DNA of 64,000 nucleotides. Source: Bacteroidales bacterium (GTDB taxonomy: Bacteria > Bacteroidota > Bacteroidia > Bacteroidales > UBA932). Below the pieces are notes generated by a model. The model made no database searches. It saw only the letters and a list, made by a program, of their open reading frames with translations, and was not told the DNA's origin. The position numbers and the translations under genes were made by a program. Where the stretch lies: the NCBI GenBank assembly GCA_017428245.1, contig JAFRRF010000020.1, positions 6,421-70,420 on the forward strand. The letters are read 5' to 3'. Of the stretch, positions 1,884 through 59,555 are shown in pieces (position 1 is the stretch's first letter; each line of letters starts with the position of its first letter).

Positions 1884-3712
1884 TTCATTCCCATTTTAAG
1901 CGTCAAAGTCAACTGTTCATCAAAGCGCTTGAAGGTCAAAGTATAGTTTCCCTTCTTCAAGTCGGTCGTCACGATTTTCATCGCAGTCATCTCGTAAGTC
2001 ACGCAGTCTTTTATGGCTGCACCGGAAGCGTCTTTCAAACTCCAGTCCACCAAATCCTTGGTTTCGATGATGATTTCTCCCGAAGTCTTGTTGAACTGGA
2101 AGGAAGTCACTTCGTCGAGTTTCGTCCCGTCGGTTACGGGAATTTCCGTGGAGAGGCCGGCTTTCGGATCGAAAATCGGTTTTTCCCACACGCCGTCAGG
2201 CCAGTCCTGTGCGCGATACACCAGGCAAAGTCTGTCGCCCGGCAAAGGATACGACTGCATAAAACAGCTGATGGAAGGATACCCCCGGCCACTGCCGGCG
2301 GAGAGCTCGTTGAAGGTATTCACATTGCTCACGAACTCTTTGATCTGTCCCTCCGCATCGCAAAGGACGATGGCATATTCACCCATGAAAGGGCGAAGGC
2401 TGCCGTTGTAAAGGAAGCCGGCCCTGATTTTGAAAGAAGTGTGGGGAACGATTGTCTCATCACACTCGATTCCGTTATAGACGGTTCCGCTGCTGCTGGA
2501 AGTACCGCCCTGGAAATAGAGATATTCCAGCGACTGTCCGCCGTCCCCTTCCTTGGGTTTGAGGCCGAAAATGGCGCCGTGACTGTAGAGATACTTCCTG
2601 CTCTCGGTCGGAGTAAAGGCGGAAAGGGCGTAATAACCGTTGCTTGATCCGCCCCATCCCCAGTTGACGCTGACATTTCCCTGCTCGTCGTATCCGTCGA
2701 CAAGGAAGGCGTGGCCGCCGGTCTCCCGGCGGGCCGAATAAAGGATCGGACGTTCCTGAAGCTCAGCTTTGAGCATATCCAGCCACTGTTCGTCGCCGAA
2801 CAAGTCACGCTTATAATGATAGGCACCGGGGTCGAAGCCGAAATATTCGACGGCACAGCCGGCCATTTTCGGCGTACTGGCGCTCGTGGATTCATCGAAT
2901 TTGGCCTGCACGGCGACACCGCAGTCATACACCAGACGGGCCACAGCCTCACCTTCCTCCTGCGTATAGCCATCACGGTAATCGAACTTGATCTTGTCCC
3001 ACTCGTAAGGGTGTCCCAGGTCAAACCCTTCGATCGTACACTTCGAGCCGTTATCTAGGTCATAACTGTAACTTTCAAGTTTCCCCTCTCCCTTGGGCGG
3101 GAAACCGTAATAACGCATGATCATACCCATTGCCAGAGGCACGCAGCCGATAACGGCGTGAGCATCGCCGACCATCGGGGTCAGGCCGTTGAACGGGGCC
3201 GTCTGCTTCCAGACCGGCGTCACGTGTTTGACGGCCGGTTGAAAATCGCCACCCGCCTTGGTCCGGACGAACAGGGCGTCCCAGGATGCTTTCGCAGCCC
3301 GCTTGTCCACGGCACCCGCCCTGACAAAGGCGACCTGCTGTTCGAGTTCTTCCAGCCAATCAACGAGATTCTCCGGCATATCGGCGCCGGTCCCGAACGA
3401 TTCGTCGAACGAATAAGCCAGCACAGGGCGGCAGTCATCCTCGCCGGCAATAATCACGAAACCGCCGCCTGCACGGTTAAAAATGAAGTAGGCCGGCTGT
3501 TCGTCGCCCGCCTTGGTCAAAGGAGCGTGCGTGAGTTCCACCGCCTCAAGCGGAGCCATCCGGCGGGCGAAATTGCGGTCGTTCTGGAAAAAAGCCTTCG
3601 CCGTTTCCCCGGCCCGGAACGCATCGACCGGATCGGCCAGAACCGGGAATGCAGAGAGCCACGTCAGTAGGAGGCCTGCAAATAAAACTCGTACCCTTTT
3701 CATATGAATCAA
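1880..3712 (-). CDS. C10 family (streptopain-like) cysteine peptidase with N-terminal pro/inhibitor-like region
   Basis: Signal peptide present. Catalytic Cys context is GCVPLAMGMIMRYYGFP and catalytic His context is GGHAFLVDGYDEQGNVSVNWGWGGSSNGYYAL, both typical of peptidase C10. About 200 aa of extra C-terminal sequence. Confidence 0.9.
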   Translation of the reverse strand: MIHMKRVRVLFAGLLLTWLSAFPVLADPVDAFRAGETAKAFFQNDRNFARRMAPLEAVELTHAPLTKAGDEQPAYFIFNRAGGGFVIIAGEDDCRPVLAYSFDESFGTGADMPENLVDWLEELEQQVAFVRAGAVDKRAAKASWDALFVRTKAGGDFQPAVKHVTPVWKQTAPFNGLTPMVGDAHAVIGCVPLAMGMIMRYYGFPPKGEGKLESYSYDLDNGSKCTIEGFDLGHPYEWDKIKFDYRDGYTQEEGEAVARLVYDCGVAVQAKFDESTSASTPKMAGCAVEYFGFDPGAYHYKRDLFGDEQWLDMLKAELQERPILYSARRETGGHAFLVDGYDEQGNVSVNWGWGGSSNGYYALSAFTPTESRKYLYSHGAIFGLKPKEGDGGQSLEYLYFQGGTSSSSGTVYNGIECDETIVPHTSFKIRAGFLYNGSLRPFMGEYAIVLCDAEGQIKEFVSNVNTFNELSAGSGRGYPSISCFMQSYPLPGDRLCLVYRAQDWPDGVWEKPIFDPKAGLSTEIPVTDGTKLDEVTSFQFNKTSGEIIIETKDLVDWSLKDASGAAIKDCVTYEMTAMKIVTTDLKKGNYTLTFKRFDEQLTLTLKMGMK

Positions 3713-4545
3713 AAATCAGAAATATCTATGATGGAAATGCCGCCGATGCCCATCTCGAAGGCGGTGGCGCCAAAGAGATTGAAGGTCACGGTGACATCGG
3801 AAGCCAAATACCTGTGCGACAACGTGGGCTCATAATCCGTCCACGTGCCGTCACCCCAGTGTACTTCCCCGACAACACCGTCGCCGGTGATGAGGGGAAC
3901 GCGGAAAACCAAACAGTTGTGCTTGATCAGCAGCACCTGGGAAAGATAGGGTTTCTGGCGGACCTTATAGGTGAGACTCAAACTGTTGCACGTCACCGTC
4001 ACGGTGCCATCACGGACGATACCGGTATTATTTGCTTCCACGCTGATTTTCAAATTGATATTACCCTTTTTTCCGTACGTCGGCTCAACGATGATCCAGG
4101 AACCGGAGACCTGGGTCATCCAGTCGTGGTTGGCGGAGAGACTCACGGTTGCAGAGCCGCCTTCGCCCGGTATCTCGACGAGCGTCAGGCTTTCGGAAGT
4201 CAGGCTGGTGTCATCTTCCTGGCTCACGGAAATGCTTTTGGTCAAAGTCAGGCAGGTCACCGTCACGCTACCTTTACGAGCCTTCCCCGAACTGTTGGCA
4301 TCGACCGTAATGTTCAGCGAAGCGGTACCTTTCCGGCCAGAGGCCGGAGATACGTGAATCCAGGGATCGGAGGCGGTGGCACTCCAGCCATAATTGGTCG
4401 TCACCCCCACGCTCTGGGATGCGCCTGCGGCCGCGGCTTGAATGGAAGTGGAGCCATCGAACACGATGGAAGGCTCTTCCAGCTGGCAGGAAATCGCAAG
4501 GAGCGCTGCAAAGCCTATCGAAAGAAGCTGTTTCGTCTTCATCAT
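3709..4545 (-). CDS. Lipoprotein with two BACON domains plus a conserved C-terminal WGDG module
   Basis: Lipobox (LLAISC). Two BACON-like repeats: GASQSVGVTTNYGWSATASDPWIHVSPASG... and GGSATVSLSANHDWMTQVSGSWIIVEPTYG.... C-terminal VLLIKH...VHWGDGTWTDYEPTLSHRY is shared with 1308-1883. Confidence 0.8.
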   Translation of the reverse strand: MMKTKQLLSIGFAALLAISCQLEEPSIVFDGSTSIQAAAAGASQSVGVTTNYGWSATASDPWIHVSPASGRKGTASLNITVDANSSGKARKGSVTVTCLTLTKSISVSQEDDTSLTSESLTLVEIPGEGGSATVSLSANHDWMTQVSGSWIIVEPTYGKKGNINLKISVEANNTGIVRDGTVTVTCNSLSLTYKVRQKPYLSQVLLIKHNCLVFRVPLITGDGVVGEVHWGDGTWTDYEPTLSHRYLASDVTVTFNLFGATAFEMGIGGISIIDISDF

Positions 4546-6371
4546 TTTCCCGTTTTAAGCGTGAAGGAATAATAACCCAGTTGAGGTTCGCCTCGGTCCA
4601 GGATGATGGTATAGGTATCCTTGGAGAGCGTGGAAAACGCAATCTCGATGGTCTTGTCGGCTGTCGTGACACCCTGGGCCACAACCGTTCCCGTCGATTT
4701 CTTGACCGACCATTTCACCCGGTCCTTGGTCTTGATCGTACACTTCCCGGCCGTCTTGTCATACCTGAACGTGGTCTCGATCACGAGATACGTGTCGTCG
4801 GCCTGCACGGGGATTTCTTTCACGAGGTCGGGGTTTTCCAGGTAATACAACGGCTCCTTCCATACGCCCTCGGGCCAGTGGTCGCTGCGATAGAAGAGCG
4901 TGATCTTGTCGCCCTCCAACGGGTAACAGGTCATGTTGCAGGGGATATTCCAGAAACTCACGCCTCCCAACGGCTTTAATTCCCCGAACGATCCTTCCTC
5001 GGAAATCCTTTCCACGATATTCCCCTCCCGGTCGGTAAGGGCAAAGAAAAACTTGCCCGCGAAAGCAGTGACTCCGCCGTTCCAGACGTATGCTACGCCC
5101 ATCTTGAATTCCTGGCCCCTGACGGGCGTGGACAGGGCGTACATTCCGTGCCAGTCGTCATCACCATTCATAAAAAGGTACTCCTCGGGCTGGCCACCCT
5201 GTCCCTTGTCGGGGACGAGGCCCAGAACGGTGGTATGCGCGTATTTGAAATGGGAGTTCGCGCCGAGCACGAACGCCGACAGGGCGAAGTAGCCGTTGCT
5301 GCTTCCACCCCAGCCCCAGTTGATGCTGAGGAAGTCCTGATTGTCGTAGCCGTCGACCACGAAACCGTGGCCACTGTCTTCACTGCTTCCCGCATAAAGG
5401 AGCGGATGCTCCTGCAATTCGGTCTTGATCATGGACATCCACTCTTCGTCGGTAAAGTACATCCGCTTGATATGGTTGACATTGGGATCGTAGCCGAAAT
5501 ACTCGATGACGGCTGGAAGCAGATTCCAGAAGTTGGTATCAGTTCCTATCGAGGAGGTATATTTCGCCTTGGCAGCCACACCCACGTCAAACATCAGACG
5601 GGACACGGCCTCCGCCTCCTCCTGCGTATAGCCCTTGGAATAGTCGAGTTTCATCTTGTCCCACTGGTAGGGATAACCCAGGTCGAAGCCTGCGACGCTA
5701 CCCTTCTCGTCCTGATACGCCCAGTCGTAGGACGGAAGAGAGCCGGTGCCCGCAGCAGGATACTTGAAGAACCGCATCACGATGCACATAGCTGTAGGAA
5801 CGCATCCGGTATAACCCCGTTTGCCGCCACTGATCGTCGGACAGTACAGGTTGAAGGGGTCGCCCTGATTGAAAAGCGCCGTCTCGTGTTTCACCTCGGG
5901 TTTGAGGTTGTTTCCAGCCTTGGTGGGATACTGCGCCGACATCCACTGGGACTTGGCCAGGTCAGCGGATTTCTGCGGGACGCCTTGGGCACGGACGACG
6001 GCAACCTGCTCTTCGAAATCGGCAAGATAAGCTTCCAATGCGGGAATTCGCTCCACATCCGCAAAATCATTCTCGTAGGAATAAGCCAGAACCGGCTTGC
6101 AGAGGTCGTCGCCAGCAATGATCACGAAACCGCCGCCTTCCCGGCTGAAGATATGGAAGGCCGACGTCGCATCGCCCGACTTGGTAAGCGGCGCTTCATA
6201 CAGGTTCACGCGGTGGAACGGGGACATCCGCCGGCCGACATTCGGGTCGCTTTGGAAAAAGACGCGCGCCACCTCGCCCGCCCGGGAAGCATCGACCGGG
6301 CCGGCAAAGGCCGGCGCAACGAGGGGCAGGACGAGCAGAACGCTCAGGAAGTAACGGGTATAACGTTTCAT
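4542..6371 (-). CDS. C10 family cysteine peptidase (paralog of 1880-3712)
   Basis: Motifs TGCVPTAMCIVMRFFKYP and SGHGFVVDGYDNQDFLSINWGWGGSSNGYFAL. The N-terminal pro-region aligns with the paralog (FFQSDPNVGRRM... versus FFQNDRNFARRM...). Confidence 0.9.
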   Translation of the reverse strand: MKRYTRYFLSVLLVLPLVAPAFAGPVDASRAGEVARVFFQSDPNVGRRMSPFHRVNLYEAPLTKSGDATSAFHIFSREGGGFVIIAGDDLCKPVLAYSYENDFADVERIPALEAYLADFEEQVAVVRAQGVPQKSADLAKSQWMSAQYPTKAGNNLKPEVKHETALFNQGDPFNLYCPTISGGKRGYTGCVPTAMCIVMRFFKYPAAGTGSLPSYDWAYQDEKGSVAGFDLGYPYQWDKMKLDYSKGYTQEEAEAVSRLMFDVGVAAKAKYTSSIGTDTNFWNLLPAVIEYFGYDPNVNHIKRMYFTDEEWMSMIKTELQEHPLLYAGSSEDSGHGFVVDGYDNQDFLSINWGWGGSSNGYFALSAFVLGANSHFKYAHTTVLGLVPDKGQGGQPEEYLFMNGDDDWHGMYALSTPVRGQEFKMGVAYVWNGGVTAFAGKFFFALTDREGNIVERISEEGSFGELKPLGGVSFWNIPCNMTCYPLEGDKITLFYRSDHWPEGVWKEPLYYLENPDLVKEIPVQADDTYLVIETTFRYDKTAGKCTIKTKDRVKWSVKKSTGTVVAQGVTTADKTIEIAFSTLSKDTYTIILDRGEPQLGYYSFTLKTGK

Positions 6372-6385
6372 CGGATCGGTACAGA

Positions 6386-7990
6386 TTACATGCTTCTGAC
6401 AAAAATTTCAAGTACACGGCCCTTGAGCTCCCGCCACTTACCGGCCACCATGGCGAAGAAACTGTCGGTCTGGTCGTCGAGCAACTGCGCGACCGCCTCT
6501 TCCCTGCCCTCGGCGGGAAGCGCCTTGACTTTCTCCTGGAGCGCGGCATCCTGTTCGAACATCATCCGTTCGAAAAGCACGCGCTGGGGTTCCAGCACTT
6601 TGCGCGTCTTATCCCAGTAGATGGTGGCGATGCGGTTGGTTTCGCGGAAAGCCCAGACAGCCGCCTCGGGCCGGTAGCTGTTCTGGCCGCAGTGTCCCAA
6701 TTCCACAGGCAGCTTCGTAGCTCCGGCATAGATCGGGAAGCGCGGGCTCTGCCCCGGATTGTCGAGCGAGAACCACAGCACGCCGCCCACTTCGTCGGGC
6801 AGCCAGTCGCGGCACTGGGCAATAAAGGAATAGGAGCACTGAATCACGGCAATGGTACGGCGGTTGGTGACGGTGCCGGGGGCGATCTGGTTGAGCATCG
6901 CACGCATATCGGCCGACATCCAGTTGGAGACCGGCGTCACCTCTTCGTCATATTCGGTATAAGTCGAATTCGGATACGGCGGGCTGTTGGGATCCTTGAT
7001 GCGGCGGTGTGCCTTGATTTTCAGGTTCTGTCCCATATCGAGATCCGTCCCTTCGTAGGTCTCGCGGTAGAAGGCCAGGACGCGCTCGGGCGTGACCGGA
7101 ACTTCCGGCTTGACCGAGAACGGGAGTTCTTCATCGTCGAGCGAGAGGCCGAGCGAAGGGGCAAGGGTGCTGAGCACGAACCATTCACGGACCGAGAACG
7201 GCTTGCGGTTGGCGTCGCCCACCACTTTCCAGAACTTCAGCGGGCCCTTGCCATCCCACAGACCCAGAGCCTTGGCCTTCTTCTTCAGGTCTTTGCAGTA
7301 CATAAAATGGTCGGGATCGTTGAAATCGATGGCGCCGATGCGCGAGATGTTGGCGGAAATGCCCACGTGATCGTCGGGAATGCGCTGGGCCGCCCAGATG
7401 GCACCGGGTTCGCCCGGACCGGGACCGTTGATCTCAAACTGCCACACCTCATTGGGATCGGCAACGGTAAGGCACTCACCCCAATCGGCATAACCGTATT
7501 TCTCAGCCATCTCCCCCATCAGGCGGACGGCATCACGGGCATTGTCGCAGTACTCAAGTGCAAGACGGCACAGTTCTTCAATCCAGAACACGCCGTTCCG
7601 GTTGATCAGGTCGCGGTTTCCGTCGTAAGTGGTCTCGCCGATGGCAAGCTGCTTCTCGTTCATACACGGGTAGGCCGTATTGACGAAACGGTAGGTCTGG
7701 GCCTTGGGCGGCACGATGCGGCCCGTCTCATAGACGCCGCGGGGATCCCACGGTTCTTCCTTGTGCAGGACGTTGAAGAAATAGGGTTCCGTCTCGCCCG
7801 GAGCAAAGGTCTTGCGGGGCTCGATGGTGATGAAAGTCCTGTAGTACGAGTCGCAGCAATGGGCGGTCATCACCGACCCGTCGCTGGAGGCCTTCTTGCC
7901 GACCATAATGGAAGTGCAGGCATCGCCGGAAGGGACGGCGCAGAGCAGCAGGGCCGCTGCAGCGACGATACAGTTACTGAGCAGTTTCAT
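6386..7990 (-). CDS. C69 family dipeptidase
   Basis: The signal peptide is followed by the N-terminal nucleophile context DACTSIMVGKKASSDGSVMTAHCCDS, typical of peptidase C69. Confidence 0.85.
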   Translation of the reverse strand: MKLLSNCIVAAAALLLCAVPSGDACTSIMVGKKASSDGSVMTAHCCDSYYRTFITIEPRKTFAPGETEPYFFNVLHKEEPWDPRGVYETGRIVPPKAQTYRFVNTAYPCMNEKQLAIGETTYDGNRDLINRNGVFWIEELCRLALEYCDNARDAVRLMGEMAEKYGYADWGECLTVADPNEVWQFEINGPGPGEPGAIWAAQRIPDDHVGISANISRIGAIDFNDPDHFMYCKDLKKKAKALGLWDGKGPLKFWKVVGDANRKPFSVREWFVLSTLAPSLGLSLDDEELPFSVKPEVPVTPERVLAFYRETYEGTDLDMGQNLKIKAHRRIKDPNSPPYPNSTYTEYDEEVTPVSNWMSADMRAMLNQIAPGTVTNRRTIAVIQCSYSFIAQCRDWLPDEVGGVLWFSLDNPGQSPRFPIYAGATKLPVELGHCGQNSYRPEAAVWAFRETNRIATIYWDKTRKVLEPQRVLFERMMFEQDAALQEKVKALPAEGREEAVAQLLDDQTDSFFAMVAGKWRELKGRVLEIFVRSM

Positions 7991-20374: not shown

Positions 20375-20418
20375 GGCAATGTTTGTTAAAAAAAATTTTT
20401 TCTTTTCTCTCTTTTGAC

Positions 20419-20426
20419 TATTTTTG
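20419..20426 (+). promoter_or_regulatory. Candidate -7 box (TATTTTTG) for tRNA-Thr
   Basis: Matches TAnnTTTG, about 38 nt upstream of the mature tRNA 5' end. Confidence 0.45.
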
Positions 20427-20463
20427 CAGTCCCAAGTTTAAACCAGACAGGTTCAAACATCAA

Positions 20464-20536
20464 GCCACTTTAGCTCAGTCGGTAGAGCAGCGCATTCGTA
20501 ACGCGCAGGTCGGCAGTCCGAGTCTGCCAAGTGGCT
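20464..20536 (+). tRNA. tRNA-Thr (anticodon CGT)
   Basis: Hand-folded cloverleaf. Acceptor GCCACTT/AAGTGGC. D arm GCTC-AGTCGGTA-GAGC. Anticodon arm GCGCA-TTCGTAA-CGCGC. Variable loop AGGTC. T arm GGCAG-TCCGAGT-CTGCC. Discriminator T. CCA is not encoded. Confidence 0.85.
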
Positions 20537-20540
20537 CAAG

Positions 20541-20582
20541 AAAAAAAAGAGAGGTTCGCGAGTTGCGAACCTCTCTTTTTTT
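20541..20582. terminator. Bidirectional intrinsic terminator
   Basis: A 12-bp perfect stem (agagaggttcgc 20548-20559 / gcgaacctctct 20565-20576) is flanked by A8 on the left and T6 on the right. It lies between the convergent tRNA-Thr and the rpmB-rpmG-DUF4295 operon. Confidence 0.85.
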
Positions 20583-20599
20583 CAAGTACCTACTCTTTA

Positions 20600-20758
20600 T
20601 TATTTCTTGAAGTAGTCGGCCACCTCGTCGGTGGGAACCAGTTCTTCCTGGAACTGATAGGCACCGGTGCGCTCAGATTTGACCATCTTGATGCACTTGA
20701 CCACATTCTTCAGCGAGGACTTGTCCCCGGAGAACGTTGCGACAGCTTTCTTTGCCAT
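20600..20758 (-). CDS. DUF4295-like small protein (52 aa), not in the supplied ORF track
   Basis: My translation is MAKKAVATFSGDKSSLKNVVKCIKMVKSERTGAYQFQEELVPTDEVADYFKK. It sits directly downstream of rpmG, where Bacteroidota typically encode DUF4295. Confidence 0.7.
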   Translation of the reverse strand: MAKKAVATFSGDKSSLKNVVKCIKMVKSERTGAYQFQEELVPTDEVADYFKK

Positions 20759-20781
20759 AGTATAATAAAGTTAAAAGGTGC

Positions 20782-20964
20782 TTACTTGATTTCCTTGTGA
20801 ACCGTGTAGCGCTTCAGGTACGGATTGTACTTCTTAAGTTCCATACGCTCGCTCGTGTTCTTCTTGTTCTTGGTCGTGATATACCGGGAAATGCCGGGAA
20901 CACCGCTTTCTCTCTGTTCGGTGCATTCGAGGATCACCTGAACTCTGTTACCTTTCTTTGCCAT
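20782..20964 (-). CDS. rpmG: 50S ribosomal protein L33
   Basis: [16 protein letters not shown]...[21 protein letters not shown] is an L33 sequence. Confidence 0.95.
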
Positions 20965-20976
20965 ATCCGTAAAAAA

Positions 20977-21219
20977 TTAAACGATGTTGATCAAACCTTT
21001 CTCCCGGGAAACCTTCAGGGTCTCGGCAAGACCGTTCTTGTAGATGGTCTTCATACCCTTGCAGGACACTTTCAGGGTCACGAAACGCTGTTCCTCTTCC
21101 AGCCAGAAACGCTTGGTCTTGAGGTTCGGGGCGAATTCGCGTTTAGTACGTCTCTTCGAGTGGGAAACATTGTTTCCAATCACCCGTTTTTTTCCTGTAA
21201 CTTGACAAACTCGTGCCAT
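20977..21219 (-). CDS. rpmB: 50S ribosomal protein L28
   Basis: MARVCQVTGKKRVIGNNVSHSKRRTKREFAPNL is the L28 N-terminus. Confidence 0.95.
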   Translation of the reverse strand: MARVCQVTGKKRVIGNNVSHSKRRTKREFAPNLKTKRFWLEEEQRFVTLKVSCKGMKTIYKNGLAETLKVSREKGLINIV

Positions 21220-21316
21220 TGGTGTATCTTTTTTTATTTTCTATTTTTCAAAGGGGCTGCAAATATCTTGATTTTTATTCAAAAAACCAAATATTATTTT
21301 CCAATTACTTATTCAT

Positions 21317-22663
21317 TTACAAAAACTTCAGCAACCTGTTCCAGCGGATGTTGCGCGGGAATTTTCCATTCGCGTCGGTCGACATCCAGATCACTCGGGG
21401 CTTGCCGACGATGTGGTCTTCGGGAACGAATCCCCAGTAACGGGAATCCAGCGAATTGTGGCGGTTGTCACCCATCATGAAGTAGTAATCCATCTTGAAA
21501 GTGTAGGTGTCGGTCGCTTCGCCATTGATGACGAACCCTCCGTCTTCTTTCACCTCAAGGGTATTGCCTTCATACACTTCGATGATGCGGCGATAGAGCG
21601 GCAGATTGTCGGCGGTCAGCTGCACAGACTCCCCCTTTGCCGGAATCCAGAGCGGGCCGTAATTATCGCGGGTCCAACCCGTTTCCACGAAGGGGAAGAG
21701 CATAAGCTCCGAATCGGGATAATCGGGCGGGAACACGTCGACATTCTGCTCGACACTTACCACGTTTGCCAAAGTCTTGATCTTTTCAAGCCGTTCGTCG
21801 GTCAGGGGCAGGGCCGGATAGCCCGGCAGCGACTGGCTGTACCAGACTTCCGACACATTGAATCCCATATCCCTCAGGACGACAGGATTGATAGCGGAAC
21901 CGCTGGTAACGACCTGCCAGGTATTCTGGATGCCCGGATAACGTTCCTGCGGAACACCGTTCACCCAAACCCAACCGTCAACGACTGAAAGCGTGTCGCC
22001 GGCCACCGCGACACAACGCTTCACATAGTGGTCCTTCTTGTCCACGGGACGGACTTTCAACGGCCCGTACGTCTTCTCGGCGTATTCACGCGAAGTCATC
22101 CGAACGTGCGTATAATAGTCCTCGGCCGGTGCCTTTGTCAGCACGGTATCTCCGTGCGGGAAGGAGAACACGACATAATCGTCGCGCTTCACATGACCGA
22201 ATCCCTTGATGCGTTTGTATCCGTATTGCAGGGCAGTCGAATAACTGTCCTTGCCGGAACCGGGCATCGTATTGTGGACGAAAGGAACGGAAAGCGGTGT
22301 CTGCGGCAGTTTGGGGCCATAGGCCGTCTTGCCGACAAACAGATAATCACCCGTCAACAGGGAACTCTCCATCGAGGAGGAAGGAATCTTGAAAGCCTGG
22401 AAGAAGAAGATGTTGATGAAGGTCACGACCACGACGGCGAAGATGATGGCATCGAGCCATCCCAACGCCACCTTGAGGCCGCGGTGCCTTTCGGAGATCT
22501 TACCGATCCAAGCCTTCAGGCGCCGGCTCACGCAGAACTCGAAAACCACCGGGAGGCCCAGGAGCCACCACCAGTTTCCGTGCCACGCGACCCAAAGCAC
22601 GTAAAGTGCAGCCCAGAAAATGAACCGCACCCAAGATTTCATATTTGTTCCCCGGACGTTCAA
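21317..22663 (-). CDS. lepB: Signal peptidase I
   Basis: S26 motifs IPSSSMESSLLTGDYLFV and GDNRHNSLDSRYWGFVPEDHIVGK. The start could instead be the Met 7 codons downstream. Confidence 0.9.
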   Translation of the reverse strand: MNVRGTNMKSWVRFIFWAALYVLWVAWHGNWWWLLGLPVVFEFCVSRRLKAWIGKISERHRGLKVALGWLDAIIFAVVVVTFINIFFFQAFKIPSSSMESSLLTGDYLFVGKTAYGPKLPQTPLSVPFVHNTMPGSGKDSYSTALQYGYKRIKGFGHVKRDDYVVFSFPHGDTVLTKAPAEDYYTHVRMTSREYAEKTYGPLKVRPVDKKDHYVKRCVAVAGDTLSVVDGWVWVNGVPQERYPGIQNTWQVVTSGSAINPVVLRDMGFNVSEVWYSQSLPGYPALPLTDERLEKIKTLANVVSVEQNVDVFPPDYPDSELMLFPFVETGWTRDNYGPLWIPAKGESVQLTADNLPLYRRIIEVYEGNTLEVKEDGGFVINGEATDTYTFKMDYYFMMGDNRHNSLDSRYWGFVPEDHIVGKPRVIWMSTDANGKFPRNIRWNRLLKFL

Positions 22664-50910: not shown

Positions 50911-51675
50911 ATGGCAGATTTTATCCGATGGTTTGACACGGTTGACTCGACCAATACCCGCCTGATGGCAGACAAGGCCGATCTGGCCGACCGCAGCGTC
51001 TATGCCGCTATGTTCCAGACCGCCGGAAGGGGCCAGAAAGGAAACCGCTGGGAGAGCCGCTCCGGCGAAAACCTCACTTTTTCCATTCTCCTGAAACCCT
51101 CTTTCCTGCCGGCATCCGAGCAGTTCATCCTCTCTCAGGTCGTCGCTCTCGGGCTGACCGACTATCTGCTGGAGCAAGGTGTGGAGGCGACCATCAAATG
51201 GCCCAACGACATCTATGCCGGCGACCGGAAGATCTGCGGGACCCTGATCGAGAACACGCTTTCGGAAGGCCGGATCGCCGCCGCAGTGGCAGGCATAGGC
51301 CTGAACGTCAATCAGCGGGAATTCGACCCTTCCCTGCCCAATCCCACCTCGCTGTCCCTGCAGACCGGGCGGGAATACGACGTACGGGAGGAACTTCCCA
51401 AACTGCTGGCCTGCATCTTCCGCTATTACGAGCGGCTCGACTCGCCCTATGCCCGCAACGGATTCGACGCGATGTATCTGGAGAAACTCTACCGACGCGG
51501 TTGCTGGCATTCTTTCGAGGAGATGCCCGCCAGCGACATCCCGACCGAACACAGGTCGGGCCGCCGCATCGAAGCCCGGATTCTGGGCATTGACACGGAG
51601 GCCCGGCTGTTGCTGGAGCTCCGCGACGGAACGCTCCGGCACTACGGATTCAAGGAAATAAAATATCTCCTCTAG
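50911..51675 (+). CDS. birA: Biotin--[acetyl-CoA-carboxylase] ligase, group I (no N-terminal HTH)
   Basis: GRGQKGNRWESRSGENLTFS (GRGRxGRxW-type motif) and KWPNDIYAGDRKICGTLIE. At 254 aa it starts directly in the catalytic domain. Confidence 0.9.
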   Translation: MADFIRWFDTVDSTNTRLMADKADLADRSVYAAMFQTAGRGQKGNRWESRSGENLTFSILLKPSFLPASEQFILSQVVALGLTDYLLEQGVEATIKWPNDIYAGDRKICGTLIENTLSEGRIAAAVAGIGLNVNQREFDPSLPNPTSLSLQTGREYDVREELPKLLACIFRYYERLDSPYARNGFDAMYLEKLYRRGCWHSFEEMPASDIPTEHRSGRRIEARILGIDTEARLLLELRDGTLRHYGFKEIKYLL

Positions 51676-51682
51676 CATTTCA

Positions 51683-51886
51683 GCCGTTCCGTGACGTGGC
51701 TGCTCCTCATGGCTCGCGACAGGGGCGTCCTTCGCTCCAGTCCCTTGACGGCTAACTCCTCCCTCTTAGGCTCGCCTAAGGCAAGCCTAACGGTCGTCAA
51801 ACACACGCCGTCACTTTGACGGGACTTCCGCTTGTCCGCCTCTTTCCTGCCGCTCGCAAATCGTCGCATCCACGTTACGGAACGGC
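51683..51886 (+). repeat. Structured intergenic repeat, copy L
   Basis: The 168-nt core (51703-51870) is enclosed by a 17-bp closing stem, gccgttccgtgacgtgg (51683-51699) / ccacgttacggaacggc (51870-51886), with one G-T pair. The core matches the reverse complement of 54507-54673 with 17 substitutions and one 1-nt indel (hand alignment). Confidence 0.9.
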
Positions 51887-54496
51887 ATGTCCAGTATTCT
51901 TCCATATGAATATTTTCGTATTTTTGCAGGAAAGCACTACGAATTCTGTTCTGATCAAATGCTGTATGTTGTTCTCATACTGCTCTCTGTTGTCATCTGT
52001 TTTTGGGTGTCGATTCGGATTCGTGCAAAGAGAGAGGAAAGAATTCATCGCTTAGAGACCCTCATCCATATTCAGCCACTTGTTGAGGCAGCGCTTGACG
52101 AACTCATTTCTTTTTACAGTTATAGCCATTTCATCACTGAATCCGAGCGCATCGCCCTGAACGAGAAATATACCGACCTGTTCAAAGAAGTATCCTCCAT
52201 TATTTCTTGTAAGGAATTGGAAGAATCTCCGCATAAGGAAAGCATCCTTCGCTTCTATAATGCGATGTCCGACAGCCAGGGCCACAAAAAGGCCAACAAT
52301 GATCATTTTATTGAAAACCAACTGATTGTTTGCTCCCGGTATTTCGATACTGTGCTCTCATATCCACTTGATGGGCAACAACGGGAATCGGTTTTGTCTC
52401 TGGAAGATAATGTACTGGTCATCAGTAGTGCCGGAAGTGGCAAGACAATGACAACCGTCGGAAAGGTACGCTACCTGATTGATGTTCAAAAAGTCTCCCC
52501 AGAGAAGATCCTGCTGATAACCTTCACCCGAAAGGCAGCAGAGTCCCTGTCTGAACGCTTGGGAGAGAAGAAACTCAAATGCAACACCTTTCACAAACTT
52601 GCTTTGGATATCATCGGCGAAGCAACTGGGGAGAAGCCAAGCATAACCGGCAAAGACTTCTCTGTTCAAGTATATCACAAACTCTTCCAAGAAAACGATT
52701 CGTTCCGCCAGGCGGTTGCGGATTACATTATTCGAGCCCGCTACAAAATGAAGGATCAGTTCGAGTATACTTCGATGCAAAAATATATGCAGGACCGCAA
52801 AAAGCATGGCATTCCAGCATACTTCAAGGATATTGATGGTCATCCCGTTTTCTGCAAATCTGATGAAGAAAGCCAGATATGCGATTTCTTGGGTTCCCGA
52901 GGCATCAAGTTCCGATATGAAGAGAAATACGAGATACCCACAGTGGATTCCGATCATCGACAGTATTGCCCGGATTTCTCAATTTACATTGACAATCCAT
53001 CCGGCAAATCCAGACGTGTTTATCTTGAGCATTTCGCTGTCAATGAAAACGGCCATTGCCCAGCATTCTTCACTTCGGAAGATGAACATAAATACAAATC
53101 CGGTATCATCTGGAAACGCCAATTACATCAGCAGAATGGGACCACCTTGATTGAAACCACTAGTGCAGGATTCCACCGAGGTGATGTATTTCATGTCCTG
53201 ACCCAACAATTAAAGGACTTAGGAGTCGTCTTCAATGAATCTATAAACCAAAATCTTTCCCGGGAATTGGTCAGACAGGAAGAGAGTATCCTGAATATGC
53301 TGACATCCTTCAATTTCTTATTAAAATCTCGCGATAAAAGTATTGAATCAATCCGTCGGCAAGCATTCATGACTATAGACTGGTTCACAGTAAATGAACT
53401 CGTCACTCCGTTTATCGAAGCTTACCGAAAAATGGAAAAGGATAATAATCTCATCGATTTCACCGATGCTATCATCCGTGCTACTGAACTCTGCAACAAC
53501 GGATATCGCCCAGACTACGATTACATTCTTGTGGATGAGTTTCAGGACATCTCCCTGGACCGATATCATTTCCTTCAGTCACTTCGTCGTGAGAAACCGC
53601 TTACAAAACTCTTTTGCGTCGGTGACGACTGGCAGTCCATTTATCGCTTCGCCGGTAGTGATATGGCTCTTTTCAAGCACTTTGAGGACTACTTCGGCTA
53701 CACGAAGAAATGTCTGATGGAAACAACCTATCGTTTCGGGGAACCGGCGATAGAGCAGTCATCAAAATTCATCCTCGCCAATCCGGAACAGGCCGTTAAG
53801 AAAGTCCATCCCTTCCGGCATGAATCCGAAACCAAATTGGACTTCATACCTACACAAAGCCGGGATGATATAGTGAGAACCATCAAGAGACTGTCGGACC
53901 AGACTTCTCCAGATAAAGAAATTCTGCTGCTCGGCCGTTACTCATTCGATATCAACGTCTTCAAAAACACTGACATATCCATTCACGACGGAGCAGACTA
54001 TATATCATACGGACAACGGAAAATGCGTTACATGACTGTCCACCAATCCAAAGGTTTGGAGAGCGACTATGTCATCTTGATCAACTGCAATGGTGGAACG
54101 ATGGGCTTTCCGGCTGATATCTCGGACAGTCCTGTACTCAGATATGTTCTGACTGAACCGGATGCCTATGTATTCAGCGAAGAACGTCGTGTCTTCTATG
54201 TTGGAATAACCCGGGCAAAAAAACATACCTGGGTACTTTACGACCAAAACAATCCTTCGCCTTTCGTCAAGGAGTTTGTAGATATTGATGAAGAAGAAAA
54301 CGAAAACATCATCCCCGAATCAGAGCGCTGCCCGAAGTGTCACTGCGGCCGAATCATCGTGGCTAAAAGAGGAAAAGCCGTCAACGGTAATCCCTATTCT
54401 GTGCTGATCTGCTCCAATGAAAAGTACGGATGTGATTACAGGGAAACTGTGTTCGTGAACCTCAACAAACCCAGACAGTACCCAAAAAGAAAGTAA
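51887..54496 (+). CDS. Membrane-anchored SF1 UvrD/Rep/HelD-like helicase with an inserted PD-(D/E)xK-like module and a C-terminal topoisomerase-type zinc ribbon
   Basis: Walker A SSAGSGKTMT (52427-), Walker B ILVDEFQD, VGDDWQSIYRFAGS, TYRFG, MTVHQSKGLESDYVIL and VFYVGITRAKK. The insert contains QYCPDFSIY...RVYLEHF. C-terminus is CPKCHCGRIIV...LICSNEKYGCDY. An alternative start is at 51959. Confidence 0.85.
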   Translation: MSSILPYEYFRIFAGKHYEFCSDQMLYVVLILLSVVICFWVSIRIRAKREERIHRLETLIHIQPLVEAALDELISFYSYSHFITESERIALNEKYTDLFKEVSSIISCKELEESPHKESILRFYNAMSDSQGHKKANNDHFIENQLIVCSRYFDTVLSYPLDGQQRESVLSLEDNVLVISSAGSGKTMTTVGKVRYLIDVQKVSPEKILLITFTRKAAESLSERLGEKKLKCNTFHKLALDIIGEATGEKPSITGKDFSVQVYHKLFQENDSFRQAVADYIIRARYKMKDQFEYTSMQKYMQDRKKHGIPAYFKDIDGHPVFCKSDEESQICDFLGSRGIKFRYEEKYEIPTVDSDHRQYCPDFSIYIDNPSGKSRRVYLEHFAVNENGHCPAFFTSEDEHKYKSGIIWKRQLHQQNGTTLIETTSAGFHRGDVFHVLTQQLKDLGVVFNESINQNLSRELVRQEESILNMLTSFNFLLKSRDKSIESIRRQAFMTIDWFTVNELVTPFIEAYRKMEKDNNLIDFTDAIIRATELCNNGYRPDYDYILVDEFQDISLDRYHFLQSLRREKPLTKLFCVGDDWQSIYRFAGSDMALFKHFEDYFGYTKKCLMETTYRFGEPAIEQSSKFILANPEQAVKKVHPFRHESETKLDFIPTQSRDDIVRTIKRLSDQTSPDKEILLLGRYSFDINVFKNTDISIHDGADYISYGQRKMRYMTVHQSKGLESDYVILINCNGGTMGFPADISDSPVLRYVLTEPDAYVFSEERRVFYVGITRAKKHTWVLYDQNNPSPFVKEFVDIDEEENENIIPESERCPKCHCGRIIVAKRGKAVNGNPYSVLICSNEKYGCDYRETVFVNLNKPRQYPKRK
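51919..51926 (+). promoter_or_regulatory. Candidate -7 box (TATTTTTG) inside the listed 5' end of the helicase ORF
   Basis: Matches TAnnTTTG. If it is used, the helicase starts at the in-frame ATG at 51959 (MLYVVLILLSVVICFWV, a TM helix). Confidence 0.4.
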
Positions 54497-54687
54497 TCAA
54501 GGCAGGGATACGACGATTTGTGAACGGCAGGAAACAGGCGGACAAGCGGAAGCCCCGCCAAAGTAACGGCGTGTGTTTGACGACCGTTAGACTCGCTTTG
54601 GCGAGGCTAAAAGGGAGGAGTTAGCCGTATAGGGGCTGGAGCGAAGGACGCCCCTGCCGCGAACCATGAGGAGAATCCCTGCCTTGA
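54497..54687 (-). repeat. Structured intergenic repeat, copy R (inverted relative to L)
   Basis: The core (54507-54673) is enclosed by a 13-bp perfect closing stem, tcaaggcagggat (54497-54509) / atccctgccttga (54675-54687). It starts at the nucleotide after the helicase stop codon and lies 27 nt downstream of the rpe stop on the minus strand. Confidence 0.9.
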
Positions 54688-54713
54688 TTAGGCAGTAAAG
54701 GATAGACAGAACA

Positions 54714-55373
54714 CTATTTCGCTTCCATCAGAGCCTTGATGGCAGCTTTCGGATCGTCTGCGGAGAAAGTGGCGGAACCGGCCACGAAGACGCCGGCACC
54801 CAGCCGCTCAAGCTCCGCGATATTCGACACATTCACGCCGCCGTCCACCTGGATGAAGCAGTCGGCTTCGGCGCCGGCGATCATCTCGGCGAGCACACCC
54901 ACTTTCTCGGTAGTCTCGGGAATGTATTTCTGGCCGCTGTAGCCCGGATGTACGCCCATCACCACCACATAGTCGATGTCGCGCAGATAAGGAATCAGCA
55001 CCTCGGCCGGAGTCTCCGGATTCACAGCCACGCCGGCTCCCATCCCGAAATCGTGAATCATCTTGATGCACTCCTTCAAGTGACGGTCGTTACACGCCTC
55101 ATAATGAACGCTAAGATACTTTACACCGAGCGCAGCGAAGCGCTCGATATAACGACACGGCTCGATAATCATCAAGTGCGCGTCGAGCGGCTTTTTCGCC
55201 ACTTCGGCAATAGCCTTGCACACCGGGAAACCGAACGAAATGTTCGGAACGAAAACACCGTCCATCACATCGAGATGGAACCAACCCGCCGCACTCCGGT
55301 TCACGAGACGGCAGTCGCGATGCAAATTGCCGAAATCGGCGGAAAGCATCGAAGGAGCAATCACCCGGGGCAT
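54714..55373 (-). CDS. rpe: Ribulose-phosphate 3-epimerase
   Basis: IAPSMLSADFGNL, HLDVMDGVFVPNISFG and MGVHPGYSGQKYI. Start moved to MPRVIAPS (55373), not the listed 55526, which overlaps pepD. Confidence 0.92.
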   Translation of the reverse strand: MPRVIAPSMLSADFGNLHRDCRLVNRSAAGWFHLDVMDGVFVPNISFGFPVCKAIAEVAKKPLDAHLMIIEPCRYIERFAALGVKYLSVHYEACNDRHLKECIKMIHDFGMGAGVAVNPETPAEVLIPYLRDIDYVVVMGVHPGYSGQKYIPETTEKVGVLAEMIAGAEADCFIQVDGGVNVSNIAELERLGAGVFVAGSATFSADDPKAAIKALMEAK

Positions 55374-56808: not shown

Positions 56809-58236
56809 TTATGCGTTGAGCGCCCGCTCGATGTCATGGACGAAACCGCGGAAACTGCGGTCGGTATCCATCAGGTCATTGACCGTGTTGCAGGCGTGAA
56901 GTACCGTCGCATGGTCCTTGCCGCCCAACTGGGCGCCAATGGACGAAAGGGAGGTCTTTGTCAGATTGCGGCTCAGATACATCGCAATCTGGCGCGCCTG
57001 CACGATTTCGCGCTTGCGCGTCTTGGAAAGGAAAATTTCGTCGGTAATGCCGAAATAGTTGCAGACCGCTTCCTGGATCCGCGGAACCGTGATTTCGCTC
57101 TTGGGATCGGTGACGATCTTGTCGACGAGCCGCTGGGCGAGATCCAGCGTGATTTCCTGATGATTGAAAGTGGCGTTGGCGATCAGGGAGAAAAGGATGC
57201 CCTCCAACTCACGGATATTCGTCTTGACGCTCCGCGCTACGAACGCAAGCACGTCCTCGGCAATTTCCACACCCTCTCGGGCACATTTCGCCTGAAGGAT
57301 CGCAAGACGCGTCTCATAGGCCGGCGGAAGCAGTTCCGCAGAAAGTCCCCACTTGAAACGGGAGAGAAGACGCTGGTCAAGGCCCTGCAGGTCCACGGGC
57401 GGCTTGTCGGAGGTGAGGATCAACTGCTTTCCGCTCTGGTGCAGATAGTTGAAGATGTGGAAGAATGCACCCTGCGTGCCCTTCTTTTCAGCGAATTCCT
57501 GAACGTCATCGATAATCAGGACGTCGATGAGCTGATAGAAGCGGAGGAAATCGGCCACCTTGTTGCCGTTGTTCGCGCTCTTGGCCGAACAGGCGGCGTT
57601 CATATACTGGTTCTGGAAAGTATTGGCGCCCACATAAAGCACCACCTTCTCAGGAAAACGCTCCTTGACCGCAATGCCGATGGCCTGCGCCAGATGGGTC
57701 TTGCCCAGACCGGGACCGCCATAGATGAACAGCGGATTGAAAGTGCTCCGTCCGGGGTTGGCAGCGATGCTCTCACCGGCGGAACGGGCCAGCCGGTTGC
57801 AACTGCCTTCGATAAAATTCTCGAAATTATAGATCGGATTGAGACAGGGCTCGATGTTCAGCCGGCGGAGACCCGGAATGGCATAGGCGCTGCCCGTATA
57901 ATGCGCGCCCGCCTCGGGAATCGGCAGTTCCGCATTGCGGATCCGGCCGCCCTTGGGACGCTGCTCGATGAAAATGTCGTCGAGGATGCGGACTTTGTAA
58001 ACCAGGGAGGCGGAAGGTCCGATCTCACGGCGGAGCACCTTGCTCAGCAGGCCGATGAAATGCTCTTCGATATACTCCCGCCAGAAGTCAGACGGTACCT
58101 CGATCGTAAGCCGCTGGTCCTCCAGGGAGATCGGCTTGATCGGTCCGAACCAGGTCTTGAAAGTCTCTTCGTTCAGGTTATCCCTGAGGATTTCAAGGCA
58201 ACGGGTCCAAACTTCTGTCTGTCTTTCGGGAATCAT
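56809..58236 (-). CDS. dnaA: Chromosomal replication initiator protein DnaA
   Basis: NPLFIYGGPGLGKTHLAQAIG, LIIDDVQEF, and the C-terminal DNA-binding domain (REIVQARQIAMYLSRNLTKTSLSSIGAQLGGKDHATVLHA). Confidence 0.97.
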   Translation of the reverse strand: MIPERQTEVWTRCLEILRDNLNEETFKTWFGPIKPISLEDQRLTIEVPSDFWREYIEEHFIGLLSKVLRREIGPSASLVYKVRILDDIFIEQRPKGGRIRNAELPIPEAGAHYTGSAYAIPGLRRLNIEPCLNPIYNFENFIEGSCNRLARSAGESIAANPGRSTFNPLFIYGGPGLGKTHLAQAIGIAVKERFPEKVVLYVGANTFQNQYMNAACSAKSANNGNKVADFLRFYQLIDVLIIDDVQEFAEKKGTQGAFFHIFNYLHQSGKQLILTSDKPPVDLQGLDQRLLSRFKWGLSAELLPPAYETRLAILQAKCAREGVEIAEDVLAFVARSVKTNIRELEGILFSLIANATFNHQEITLDLAQRLVDKIVTDPKSEITVPRIQEAVCNYFGITDEIFLSKTRKREIVQARQIAMYLSRNLTKTSLSSIGAQLGGKDHATVLHACNTVNDLMDTDRSFRGFVHDIERALNA

Positions 58237-58340
58237 ACTCGGGTCTAAGTTTCGACAACAAAATTGGGGAAAAAAAGGTGATAAAAAAAACTTTTTTTGA
58301 TTGTTTTTTTCAAAAAAAACGCAAGTGCCTAATTATCAAG

Positions 58341-58376
58341 AAAAAAAAATTTCAGGTTTTTGTTTTTACCTGAAAA
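58341..58376 (-). terminator. Intrinsic terminator downstream of the amidase gene
   Basis: On the minus strand, the stem tttcaggt/acctgaaa (58350-58357 / 58368-58375) is followed by T9 (the complement of the A-run at 58341-58349). Confidence 0.75.
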
Positions 58377-58460
58377 TCAGCAAATTACAAGCGCACGAAG
58401 TGGCTACATTATTGAAAATAATAGAGTTAGAAAAACAGTACGGTTGAAAGACCGGCAGCG

Positions 58461-59555
58461 TTACTCCACCGCGATGACGAAAGCTCCGGAAAATTTCTTC
58501 CTAATCTCGGGAAGCCGGGCCAATGCAGCTTCGCGCGTCGGGAAATTACCAACAGAATATTTGTACATTCCGTTGATAAGTCTGCATTGGTATTGTGTCA
58601 CCCCTTTCAACTCGGCCGATCCGTTTTTCAACTTTTTCGAGGTGGCCAGAATCTGGATTTCATAGTGCGGTCCGGCAATGGCCGCCTGCTCGTCGACAGG
58701 CTCCGTCGGGGAGAGCATCGACTCGTCGATTTCAATGACGGCGTCGGAATCGTACTGCTGTTTGAATGTGGAGAAAGCCCTGAAAATATCATCGGCGATC
58801 TTCTGGCGGTTGGCGGCATTATTGAGCGTCGTACGGTCGTTGGCATTGGAAAGGAAACCCACCTCGACAAGAACCGAAGGCATCGTAGTGCGCCAAAGCA
58901 CCATAAGCGGCGCCTGACGGATACCCCTGCTCTTCCGTATCGGTCCGTTTTTGACAAACTGCTGCTGTATCAGCGCGGCGAAAGCGATGCTCTGTTCGAA
59001 ATGCGCGTTCTGCATCAGGTTGAAAATGATATAGGATTCCGGATTGTTCGGATCGAATCCTTCGTACGTAGTGGAATAATCGTCTTCCAGCAGGATCACA
59101 GAATTCTCCCGCTTGCACACCTCCATATTCGACTGGCTCTTGTCGGTACCCATCACGAACGTTTCCGTACCCGAAGCGGCAGTACTTCTAGCCGAATTCA
59201 CGTGGATGGAAATGAACAGGTCGGCATGGTTCCGGTTGGCGATGTTGCCACGCTCGGCAAGTTCGACGAAGCGGTCGGTCTTCCTTGTATAGATTACTTT
59301 CACATCCGGTAATTCCTTCTCGATGCGGGCCCCAAGCTTCAATGCGAGATCCAGGTTGATCTGCTTCTCGCTCATCTTGCTGCTCTTGGAAATCGCTCCC
59401 GGGTCGTGTCCGCCGTGACCGGCGTCTATGACCACCGTACGGAGGCGGATTCCGCCATCCTGTGCCTGAGCCAGTGAAGAAGGAAAAAGCGCCGGCAGGA
59501 GCGCCAGCAGCAGGATTCCAGACCGTCGGAGAAGGTATTTTACGCGAGATGGCAT
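58461..59555 (-). CDS. N-acetylmuramoyl-L-alanine amidase (Amidase_3) with C-terminal SPOR domain
   Basis: Start moved to MPSRVKYLLRRSGILLLALL (59555). VVIDAGHGGHDPGA, ISIHVNS and GFLSN. C-terminal YEIQILATSKKL...YKYSVGNFPTREAALARL is SPOR-like. Confidence 0.85.
   Translation of the reverse strand: MPSRVKYLLRRSGILLLALLPALFPSSLAQAQDGGIRLRTVVIDAGHGGHDPGAISKSSKMSEKQINLDLALKLGARIEKELPDVKVIYTRKTDRFVELAERGNIANRNHADLFISIHVNSARSTAASGTETFVMGTDKSQSNMEVCKRENSVILLEDDYSTTYEGFDPNNPESYIIFNLMQNAHFEQSIAFAALIQQQFVKNGPIRKSRGIRQAPLMVLWRTTMPSVLVEVGFLSNANDRTTLNNAANRQKIADDIFRAFSTFKQQYDSDAVIEIDESMLSPTEPVDEQAAIAGPHYEIQILATSKKLKNGSAELKGVTQYQCRLINGMYKYSVGNFPTREAALARLPEIRKKFSGAFVIAVE

Follow-up and report, generated by a model that had tools for sequence, protein, structure and literature searches.

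Helicase motors of superfamily 1 (SF1) are joined to PD-(D/E)xK nucleases in one polypeptide in the RecB/AddA-type and Nhi/Hhe-type fusions, in which the nuclease is terminal and is either RecB/Cas4-like or Vsr/DUF2726-like. DNA helicase IV (HelD), known since 1987, is functionally obscure and has no solved structure, and a 2021 review noted that information on its function is sparse and on its structure lacking (PMC8655204). Here we describe a gene from a 64,000-nt stretch of DNA of a Bacteroidales bacterium (contig JAFRRF010000020.1, positions 6,421 to 70,420; hereafter the window), whose product combines a helicase IV-like motor with a nuclease-fold domain nested inside it, a predicted C-terminal zinc ribbon and a predicted N-terminal transmembrane (TM) helix, and which lies on an insertion between birA and rpe. 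It looks like a gene of defence or conflict rather than one of housekeeping repair, because a membrane-tethered helicase and a nuclease-like domain occur together on 3 kb of foreign DNA without a counterpart in relatives. That it is a horizontally acquired, membrane-anchored, single-polypeptide helicase-nuclease of the helicase IV branch, acting in genome conflict or defence, is a proposal for which we judge the balance to be even.

Domain architecture of the helicase

The maximal open reading frame (ORF) runs from 51887 to 54496 on the + strand (869 aa). A motif search found a Bacteroidetes-type -7 box (TATTTTTG, 51919–51926, + strand) within this longer frame, 33 nt 5' of the ATG at 51959, and database homologues begin at that Met, among them a protein of 845 aa with 100% identity (P0001). 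The true translation start is thus most likely at 51959, a start that the first-pass annotation of the sequence had considered, and residues are numbered throughout from this coding sequence (51959–54496, + strand, 845 aa).

As read from its sequence, the ORF is an intact UvrD-type helicase of the SF1A group. Pfam families UvrD-helicase (PF00580; 144.9 bits against a cut-off of 23) and UvrD_C (PF13361; 69.1 bits against 25.6) were matched above their gathering scores, AAA_19 was likewise far over its cut-off, and motifs I to VI are intact; every SF1 motif listed in the first-pass annotation was found where it had been placed. In an alignment of 40 diverse homologues (29–74% identity), which served for all conservation estimates, residues G159, G161 and K162 of motif I (Walker A, SSAGSGKT, 52424–52447) are invariant, as are the columns of motifs II (LVDEFQD, 53528–53548) and III (VGDDWQSIYRFAGS, 53618–53659); motifs V (HQSKGLESD, 54041–54067) and VI (YVGITRAK, 54197–54220) are conserved, and a TYRFG motif lies at 53726–53740, all on the + strand. 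An AlphaFold2 (AF2) model built on the same 40 homologues (pLDDT 89.1, pTM 0.80) gave UvrD, PcrA and Rep as its top Foldseek matches (E about 1e-20); with the full model, only UvrD, PcrA, Rep, AddA and RecB motors were matched, and nothing on the insert described below.

Sequence comparisons point to E. coli DNA helicase IV as the closest named family, which would place the protein in the helicase IV branch of SF1A. The best NCBIfam match was DNA helicase IV (PRK11054), with 371.6 bits in two separate stretches, below the equivalog cut-off of 543 bits, and BLASTP against HelD of E. coli MG1655 gave 34% identity in two blocks (query 103–243 with HelD 163–307, and query 480–777 with HelD 390–677). 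By analogy with the helicase IV motor, translocation is expected to have 3'–5' polarity. The domain layout of HelD, with a HelD-type N-terminal domain, a short 1B segment and no C-terminal extension, was not found: our helicase extends ~70 aa past the C-terminus of HelD, and the segment between the two blocks has 237 aa, against 83 aa in HelD (~150 aa extra), which bears out the insert noted between motifs Ia and II in the first-pass annotation.

Nested in this insert, at the 1B position, is a predicted PD-(D/E)xK domain that resembles T7 endonuclease I (52844–53173, + strand; aa 296–405). When a profile of the insert was compared with all PDB sequences, only T7 endonuclease I was matched (3cae at 1e-4; also 2pfj, 1m0d and 1fzr), in an alignment that covers the S-x-x-E helix, the GIxFxYE strand, YxPDF and the following Glu, and that includes the catalytic residues E20, D55 and E65. 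Pfam PF05367 was below its gathering threshold of 29.1 bits (12.8 bits with the full protein, 16.0 bits with the insert alone), and from this and the profile match at 1e-4 we regard the insert as a distant relative of T7 endonuclease I and not as a member of its family. The insert profile otherwise retrieved short fragments of the same helicase family, and no other architecture containing the domain.

Structure predictions agree with this relationship. Modelled alone with AF2, the insert had a pLDDT of 96.6 and an alpha-beta-beta-beta-alpha-beta topology (H18–29, E33–36, E56–61, E67–75, H89–109, E112–117), and the same compact unit appears in the full model at residues 302–401, inside the helical region at the 1B position. 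The top Foldseek match in the PDB was TnsA (probability 0.96, TM-score 0.54), with the bunyavirus cap-snatching endonuclease, VRR-NUC, RecU and MspI among the other structural neighbours; the best of these neighbours are all PD-(D/E)xK enzymes, at weak E-values (0.056 and above). Among the predicted viral structures of BFVD, 19 matches at E ≤ 1e-3 (TM-score 0.55–0.66) carried annotations as restriction enzyme, homing endonuclease, DUF2726, DUF559, Vsr-type mismatch endonuclease or T7-like endonuclease. The core topology and the similarity to known members are those of the PD-(D/E)xK fold, and these structural matches indicate that the first-pass annotation was correct in assigning a Vsr or restriction-endonuclease fold to the insert.

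Conservation of the domain is high in the 40 homologues, with S301, E304, Y320, E321, Y336, P338, D339, F340, Y355, E357, H358, Y379, H390 and T395 invariant and W385 and K386 nearly so; the key positions are encoded at 52868–52870 (E304), 52973–52975 (D339), 53027–53032 (E357-H358) and 53111–53116 (W385-K386), all on the + strand. The invariance across phyla of the three acidic positions, of which E304 is on helix 1, argues for a maintained metal site. However, the third nuclease motif reads E-H-F, or E-Y-F or H-E-H-W in some clades, and not E-x-K, so that the PD...(E/D)-x-(K/H) spacing given in the first-pass annotation holds for the fold and the invariant acids and fails at the canonical Lys, which is absent family-wide: its position, equivalent to K67 of T7 endonuclease I, is F, Y or W in every member inspected. 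K67 is the catalytic Lys of that enzyme, and a K67A mutant is inactive. With the canonical Lys replaced, the domain may not cleave at all, or a different residue may stand in, such as the near-invariant K386, and its nuclease activity is uncertain.

The missing Lys thus keeps alive a different explanation, in which the nuclease-fold insert is catalytically dead and serves to recognise branched DNA or junctions. The protein would then be a translocase or remodeller, specific for DNA structure, that acts by blocking or displacing and not by cutting, for defence or for repair. It would fit with T7 endonuclease I, the closest relative in sequence, which binds four-way junctions. On the other side, E304, D339 and E357, together with many residues around them, are invariant across phyla at ~30% identity, as is typical of an active site that is being maintained; K386 and H358 are both conserved and could take the role of the missing Lys; and in some active PD-(D/E)xK enzymes, such as BglII and BamHI, the Lys is substituted or has moved elsewhere. 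We see a dead nuclease as a serious possibility, though a doubtful one.

Additional segments flank the motor at both ends. The coding sequence opens with a putative TM helix (51962–52015, + strand; aa 2–19, MLYVVLILLSVVICFWV) with a mean Kyte-Doolittle hydropathy of 2.9, as anticipated in the first-pass annotation, and 33 of the 40 homologues have an equivalent hydrophobic N-terminal segment; in the AF2 model a continuous helix spans residues 2–52, of which the first 18 are hydrophobic. It is followed by an Arg/Lys-rich stretch (SIRIRAKREERIHR, including RIRAKREER), which by the positive-inside rule would leave most of the polypeptide in the cytoplasm. A helical N-terminal domain comes next (52031–52351, + strand; aa 25–131), whose last ~30 aa align with HelD 163–190, and the modelled helical bundle extends to about residue 131. 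At the other end, C791, C794, C818 and C825 form a predicted four-Cys zinc ribbon (CPKC ... C-x6-C, 54329–54433, + strand) with three short beta-strands in the AF2 model (residues 798–832). All four Cys are kept in at least 90% of the homologues, and 16 of the 40 match Pfam PF01396 (Zn_ribbon_Top1; best E = 5.5e-22), some with two to four copies, in line with the ribbon of the topoisomerase type proposed earlier for this protein. The C-terminus of the window protein itself had no PF01396 match in Pfam even at E ≤ 10, and its isolated N- and C-termini gave nothing usable against Pfam.

Insertion at the birA-rpe junction and distribution of the family

The helicase gene is part of an insertion of 3,038 nt (51676–54713) that reaches from the birA stop to the rpe stop and consists of a left element, a promoter, the helicase gene and a right element. 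In relatives whose BirA is 90%, 82% or 81% identical, the order rsfS-birA-rpe-M20 peptidase-dnaA-amidase is kept, the stop codons of birA and rpe overlap (CTAG) or the two genes lie 47 nt apart, and there is neither helicase nor repeat at the junction; 51676–54713 is thus an insertion specific to this lineage, at a junction of two convergent genes. The gene has a GC content of 0.444, against 0.55–0.56 in its flanks, and a GC3 of 0.50, against 0.70–0.76 in birA and rpe, and it forms the sole long low-GC tract across the window. The low-GC insertion suspected in the first-pass annotation is therefore real, and horizontal transfer on a self-contained cassette of ~3 kb is the best-supported origin for the gene, judging from these comparisons. 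There is no recombinase within the cassette.

The surroundings of the insertion include dnaA (56809–58236, - strand), ~2.3 kb away, and beyond it a short low-GC tract (58001–58800) that may be the replication origin, which would put the cassette very close to oriC. Another short low-GC tract was seen at 20401–21600 (minimum GC 0.443).

Far from being unusual, as the first-pass annotation had called it, the architecture is widespread. An exhaustive HMMER search retrieved 2,295 clusters at 50% identity (E ≤ 1e-30), many of them full length, and a pattern-based scan that took one genome from each species gave at least 580 confirmed loci in Bacteroidota, Bacillota, Pseudomonadota, Actinomycetota, Patescibacteria and Myxococcota, as well as in one Thermoplasmata archaeon. 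In the best 80 of these loci, the strict PD[FYW]...xEH pattern was found in 66, and the distance from Walker A to DEFQD was 365–400 aa wherever both motifs were matched, against ~220 in HelD. Relatives are labelled 'DNA helicase-4' by JGI, on fragments, or 'UvrD-helicase domain-containing protein' by NCBI.

Family members are frequently carried by mobile DNA. PLSDB contains 113 plasmids with a member, among them 33 from Acinetobacter, 13 each from Rhizobium and Vibrio and 10 from Escherichia, and IMG/VR contains ~60 contigs with near-full-length members (predicted proviruses), with essentially none in curated phage genomes. For instance, in the A. baumannii plasmid pAb-C102_1 (locus L134, NZ_CP051863.1 1–14130) the member adjoins a multiubiquitin/ThiF/DUF6527 operon, a DUF3800 gene and IS5, and in a Hymenobacter plasmid the homologue is flanked by a restriction endonuclease and an HNH nuclease. 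The pAb-C102_1 island also holds a second UvrD-domain protein, of 1,130 aa, next to a sigma-70 factor gene. The homologues with 70–74% identity to the window protein are found as lone genes, in four housekeeping settings unrelated to one another, and in three of these settings the homologue has a lower GC content than its flanks. A large serine recombinase was seen within two to three genes of the homologue in five of the 80 loci (L044, L050, L069, L070 and L073), a hint that some members ride integrative elements.

No conserved partner gene was found by clustering the neighbours of the 80 diverse loci. A Pfam scan of 150 immediate neighbours nevertheless gave several recurrent families of conflict type, namely NERD (four), T5orf172 (three) and HipA, AbiEii, PLDc_2, DUF4357 and MUG113 (two each), as raw counts rather than enrichments; the only recurrent families of other kinds were MFS_1 and GNAT acetyltransferases, with two members each. 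PADLOC identified AbiE, PtuB, bSEFIR, an HKD-Snf2 protein and several PDC candidate systems among the neighbours.

These data bear on whether the gene might simply be a housekeeping orthologue of helicase IV, working in RecF-pathway recombination or in fork repair, with the additional domains as a lineage-specific decoration. PRK11054 is after all the best NCBIfam match, the motor is 34% identical to that of HelD, the JGI label says as much, and among the contigs listed for the window species, with identical BirA and reaching past birA, every one carries the helicase and none shows an empty site. But the PRK11054 score stays under the equivalog cut-off, HelD has no insert, TM helix or zinc ribbon, the syntenic relatives with 81–90% identical BirA lack the gene, and the gene is low in GC, non-syntenic and common on plasmids and predicted proviruses. 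Given the empty sites and the mobility, we consider a housekeeping role unlikely.

Palindromic elements flanking the cassette

Two copies of an imperfect palindrome of ~200 nt delimit the cassette, and they are the only ones in the window. The left copy (51676–51886, + strand) has a conserved asymmetric core at about 51740–51825, and the right copy (54494–54700, - strand) is inverted with respect to it and begins at the stop codon of the helicase. The inverted-repeat arms, at 51698–51871 and 54506–54678, are 88–89% identical, and the outermost 12–15 bp of each arm are copy-specific yet self-complementary. The elements fold as one long hairpin, with z = -6.4 (+ strand) and z = -7.8 (- strand) against shuffled controls. 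A search of 51400–54900 against Rfam at E ≤ 1 gave no match in the elements, and the lone match obtained was a chance small RNA inside birA. An ORF of 77 aa (51672–51905, - strand) lies wholly inside the left element and has been called as a gene in some metagenome annotations (L129 and L133); the GC-rich hairpin most likely gives rise to it as an artefact.

The 25-nt core of the element occurs in 36 metagenome contigs, and was not found in viral contigs. Two blocks are nearly invariant across copies, GCTTGACGGCTAACTCCTCCCTTTTAG and CCTAACGGTCGTCAAACACACGCCGTCA, the latter of which contains the string used for the search. Between them is a hairpin that pairs in each of the 19 sequence variants seen among 37 copies (for example CCCGCC/GGCGGG, CTCGCC/GGCGAG and CTTGC/GCAAG), and the outer arms vary between subfamilies of the element and also always pair. 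The element family measures ~200–240 nt, and inverted pairs bracket cassettes of ~3 kb.

The element has a consistent orientation towards DNA of low GC content. Among 22 non-redundant copies with both flanks available, GC was lower by more than 0.04 on the 3' side in 10 and higher in one (Wilcoxon p = 0.0015), and ORFs had a median GC of 0.47 towards the cargo and 0.565 towards the host. In one contig stretch (L102) an inverted pair brackets a fusion protein of 898 aa, an AAA_11/AAA_12 helicase joined to a DUF2726 nuclease, and in another (L124) an inverted pair brackets the C-terminus of an RHS-type toxin (2210–4969) and a small downstream ORF, possibly an immunity gene. The L102 product (667–3363, - strand), an SF1 helicase with a C-terminal DUF2726/MTES_1575 nuclease, is a second, unrelated helicase-nuclease in the same kind of cassette. 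On contig R24__coassemble_200 (L093, L097) there are two copies that point in opposite directions, and an RHS-repeat protein (L093:3098–5116) is encoded 3' of one of them. Single copies adjoin genes for a type ISP restriction enzyme, an Mrr nuclease and a DUF4007 protein, and also LicD, PEP-mutase, glycosyltransferase and glycosidase genes. The type ISP/IIG restriction-modification enzyme (L112; N6_Mtase + Type_ISP_C) has 1,047 aa and is cargo (2675–5815) on the low-GC side of its element (6830–6916, - strand). The borders of accessory DNA are thus marked by the element, and this DNA is rich in conflict genes without being limited to them.

The first-pass annotation had raised the question of whether homologues sit between the same repeats, and the answer was negative: none of the other family loci examined (L002–L089) has the element, not even around the 70%-identical homologues. 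A 67%-identical homologue does lie ~900 nt from another copy. It is very improbable that the helicase-nuclease serves to mobilise the cassette that carries it, extruding and resolving the flanking palindromes as cruciforms, the type of substrate used by T7 endonuclease I, for excision or insertion: the gene is precisely bracketed by inverted, cruciform-capable palindromes, the whole unit is an insertion and that homologue lies near a copy, but the elements also bracket cargo without this helicase (the RHS toxin and the SF1-DUF2726 protein), most family members lack them, and the family has no similarity to known transposases.

Predicted role and comparison with known systems

A defence gene of the kind proposed at the outset would work as follows. 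The N-terminal helix would tether the enzyme at the cytoplasmic face of the inner membrane, the entry point of foreign DNA, where the zinc ribbon and the motor could engage single-stranded or branched DNA. The ATP-driven motor would then translocate 3'–5' along the DNA, while the T7-endonuclease-I-like domain nested in 1B, held near the junction of single- and double-stranded DNA, would recognise and probably cleave the branched or unwound substrate, so that invading phage or plasmid DNA would be destroyed or its replication blocked. The two hairpin elements that delimit the cassette would probably also insulate its transcription from birA and rpe.

Besides the replaced Lys, several points weigh against this role. 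The TM helix is absent in many proteobacterial and actinobacterial members, so that the family does not depend on a membrane tether. Relatives appear in databases as 'DNA helicase-4', and helicase IV acts in recombination and repair. Most neighbours outside the recurrent conflict families are ordinary metabolic or housekeeping genes, the recurrence of those families consists of raw counts, and the cargo 3' of the elements, which includes polysaccharide and glycosidase genes, is not only related to defence. The 25 best matches listed in PADLOC-DB v2 were all to RTasHel (partial, 142.8 bits) or to GajB models (matching the motor only, 1e-39), with no system-specific model, and we found no description of this architecture in the literature on helicase IV and no characterised member of the family. 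The defence hypothesis of the first-pass annotation thus gains support from context, namely mobile carriage and conflict-type neighbours, and finds none in a dedicated PADLOC model. Neither an insert devoid of nuclease fold and acidic residues nor core, syntenic homologues of normal GC, both of which that annotation had named as arguments against its own proposal, turned up when we looked for them.

The nested-nuclease, zinc-ribbon and often membrane-anchored form of helicase IV-like proteins is widespread and apparently undescribed, and much of what is labelled 'helicase IV' or 'UvrD-helicase domain-containing protein' is a distinct helicase-nuclease architecture with the hallmarks of conflict genes. 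If it protects against phages or plasmids, it would be a compact one-gene system, abundant in gut and rumen Bacteroidales, in plasmids of Acinetobacter, Vibrio and Rhizobium and in prophages, and would illustrate the nesting of a nuclease within an SF1 motor, at the 1B position that contacts the fork. More speculatively, and with no great confidence, the locus could unite an undescribed, widespread class of single-protein immune effectors with an unrecognised mobile cassette of rumen and gut Bacteroidales. The former may combine helicase IV-like motors, a nested junction nuclease and topoisomerase-type ribbons, and be tethered to the membrane in Bacteroidota and Patescibacteria to intercept entering DNA; the latter may use inverted, structured ends of ~200 nt, with an asymmetric core and co-varying stems, to bring single defence or toxin genes into housekeeping junctions. 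The hairpin-bounded cassette may even be the more novel feature of the two and, with its clean filled and empty sites, it offers a tractable entry to the insertion of single accessory genes between core genes of Bacteroidales.

Compared with known systems, the window helicase is closest to HelD, with which it shares the SF1A sub-branch, the 34% identity over 1A, 2A and part of the pre-motor region, the spellings DEFQD, VGDDWQxIYRFxG and TYRF, and the lack of a large 2B domain. Unlike the window protein, HelD has no nuclease fold in its 83-aa segment, neither a PDF...EH motif nor a terminal Cys cluster, and a different N-terminal domain of ~160 aa, and its gene is chromosomal in E. coli whereas ours is an insertion. 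T7 endonuclease I (PF05367; 1m0d, 2pfj, 3cae) and the insert have in common the restriction-endonuclease fold, S-x-x-E, G-I-x-[FY]-x-Y-E, Y-x-P-D-F and the following E; they differ in K67, aromatic in the insert, and in that the phage enzyme is a free, domain-swapped dimer and the insert is nested in a helicase. As in the RecB/AddA-type and Nhi/Hhe-type fusions, for which the same logic of translocating and then cutting is proposed, an SF1 motor and a PD-(D/E)xK nuclease share one polypeptide, but the window nuclease is T7-endonuclease-I-like and nested in 1B instead of terminal, and the protein has no partner subunit. Gabija GajB also has a UvrD-type core (PADLOC GajB models at 1e-39; PDB 8jqb at 2e-8), although these matches are partial and restricted to the motor; the genes next to the window helicase are birA and rpe and not one for a GajA OLD-family nuclease, and none of the 80 loci pointed to a conserved partner. 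Finally, the flanking element resembles ERIC and MITE-like repeats in being an imperfect palindrome of ~130–240 nt, intergenic and dispersed, that folds as a long hairpin, and is unlike them in its conserved, asymmetric centre, in its arms that vary yet remain self-complementary, in its consistent orientation to low-GC cargo and in the pairs of copies that bracket whole cassettes.

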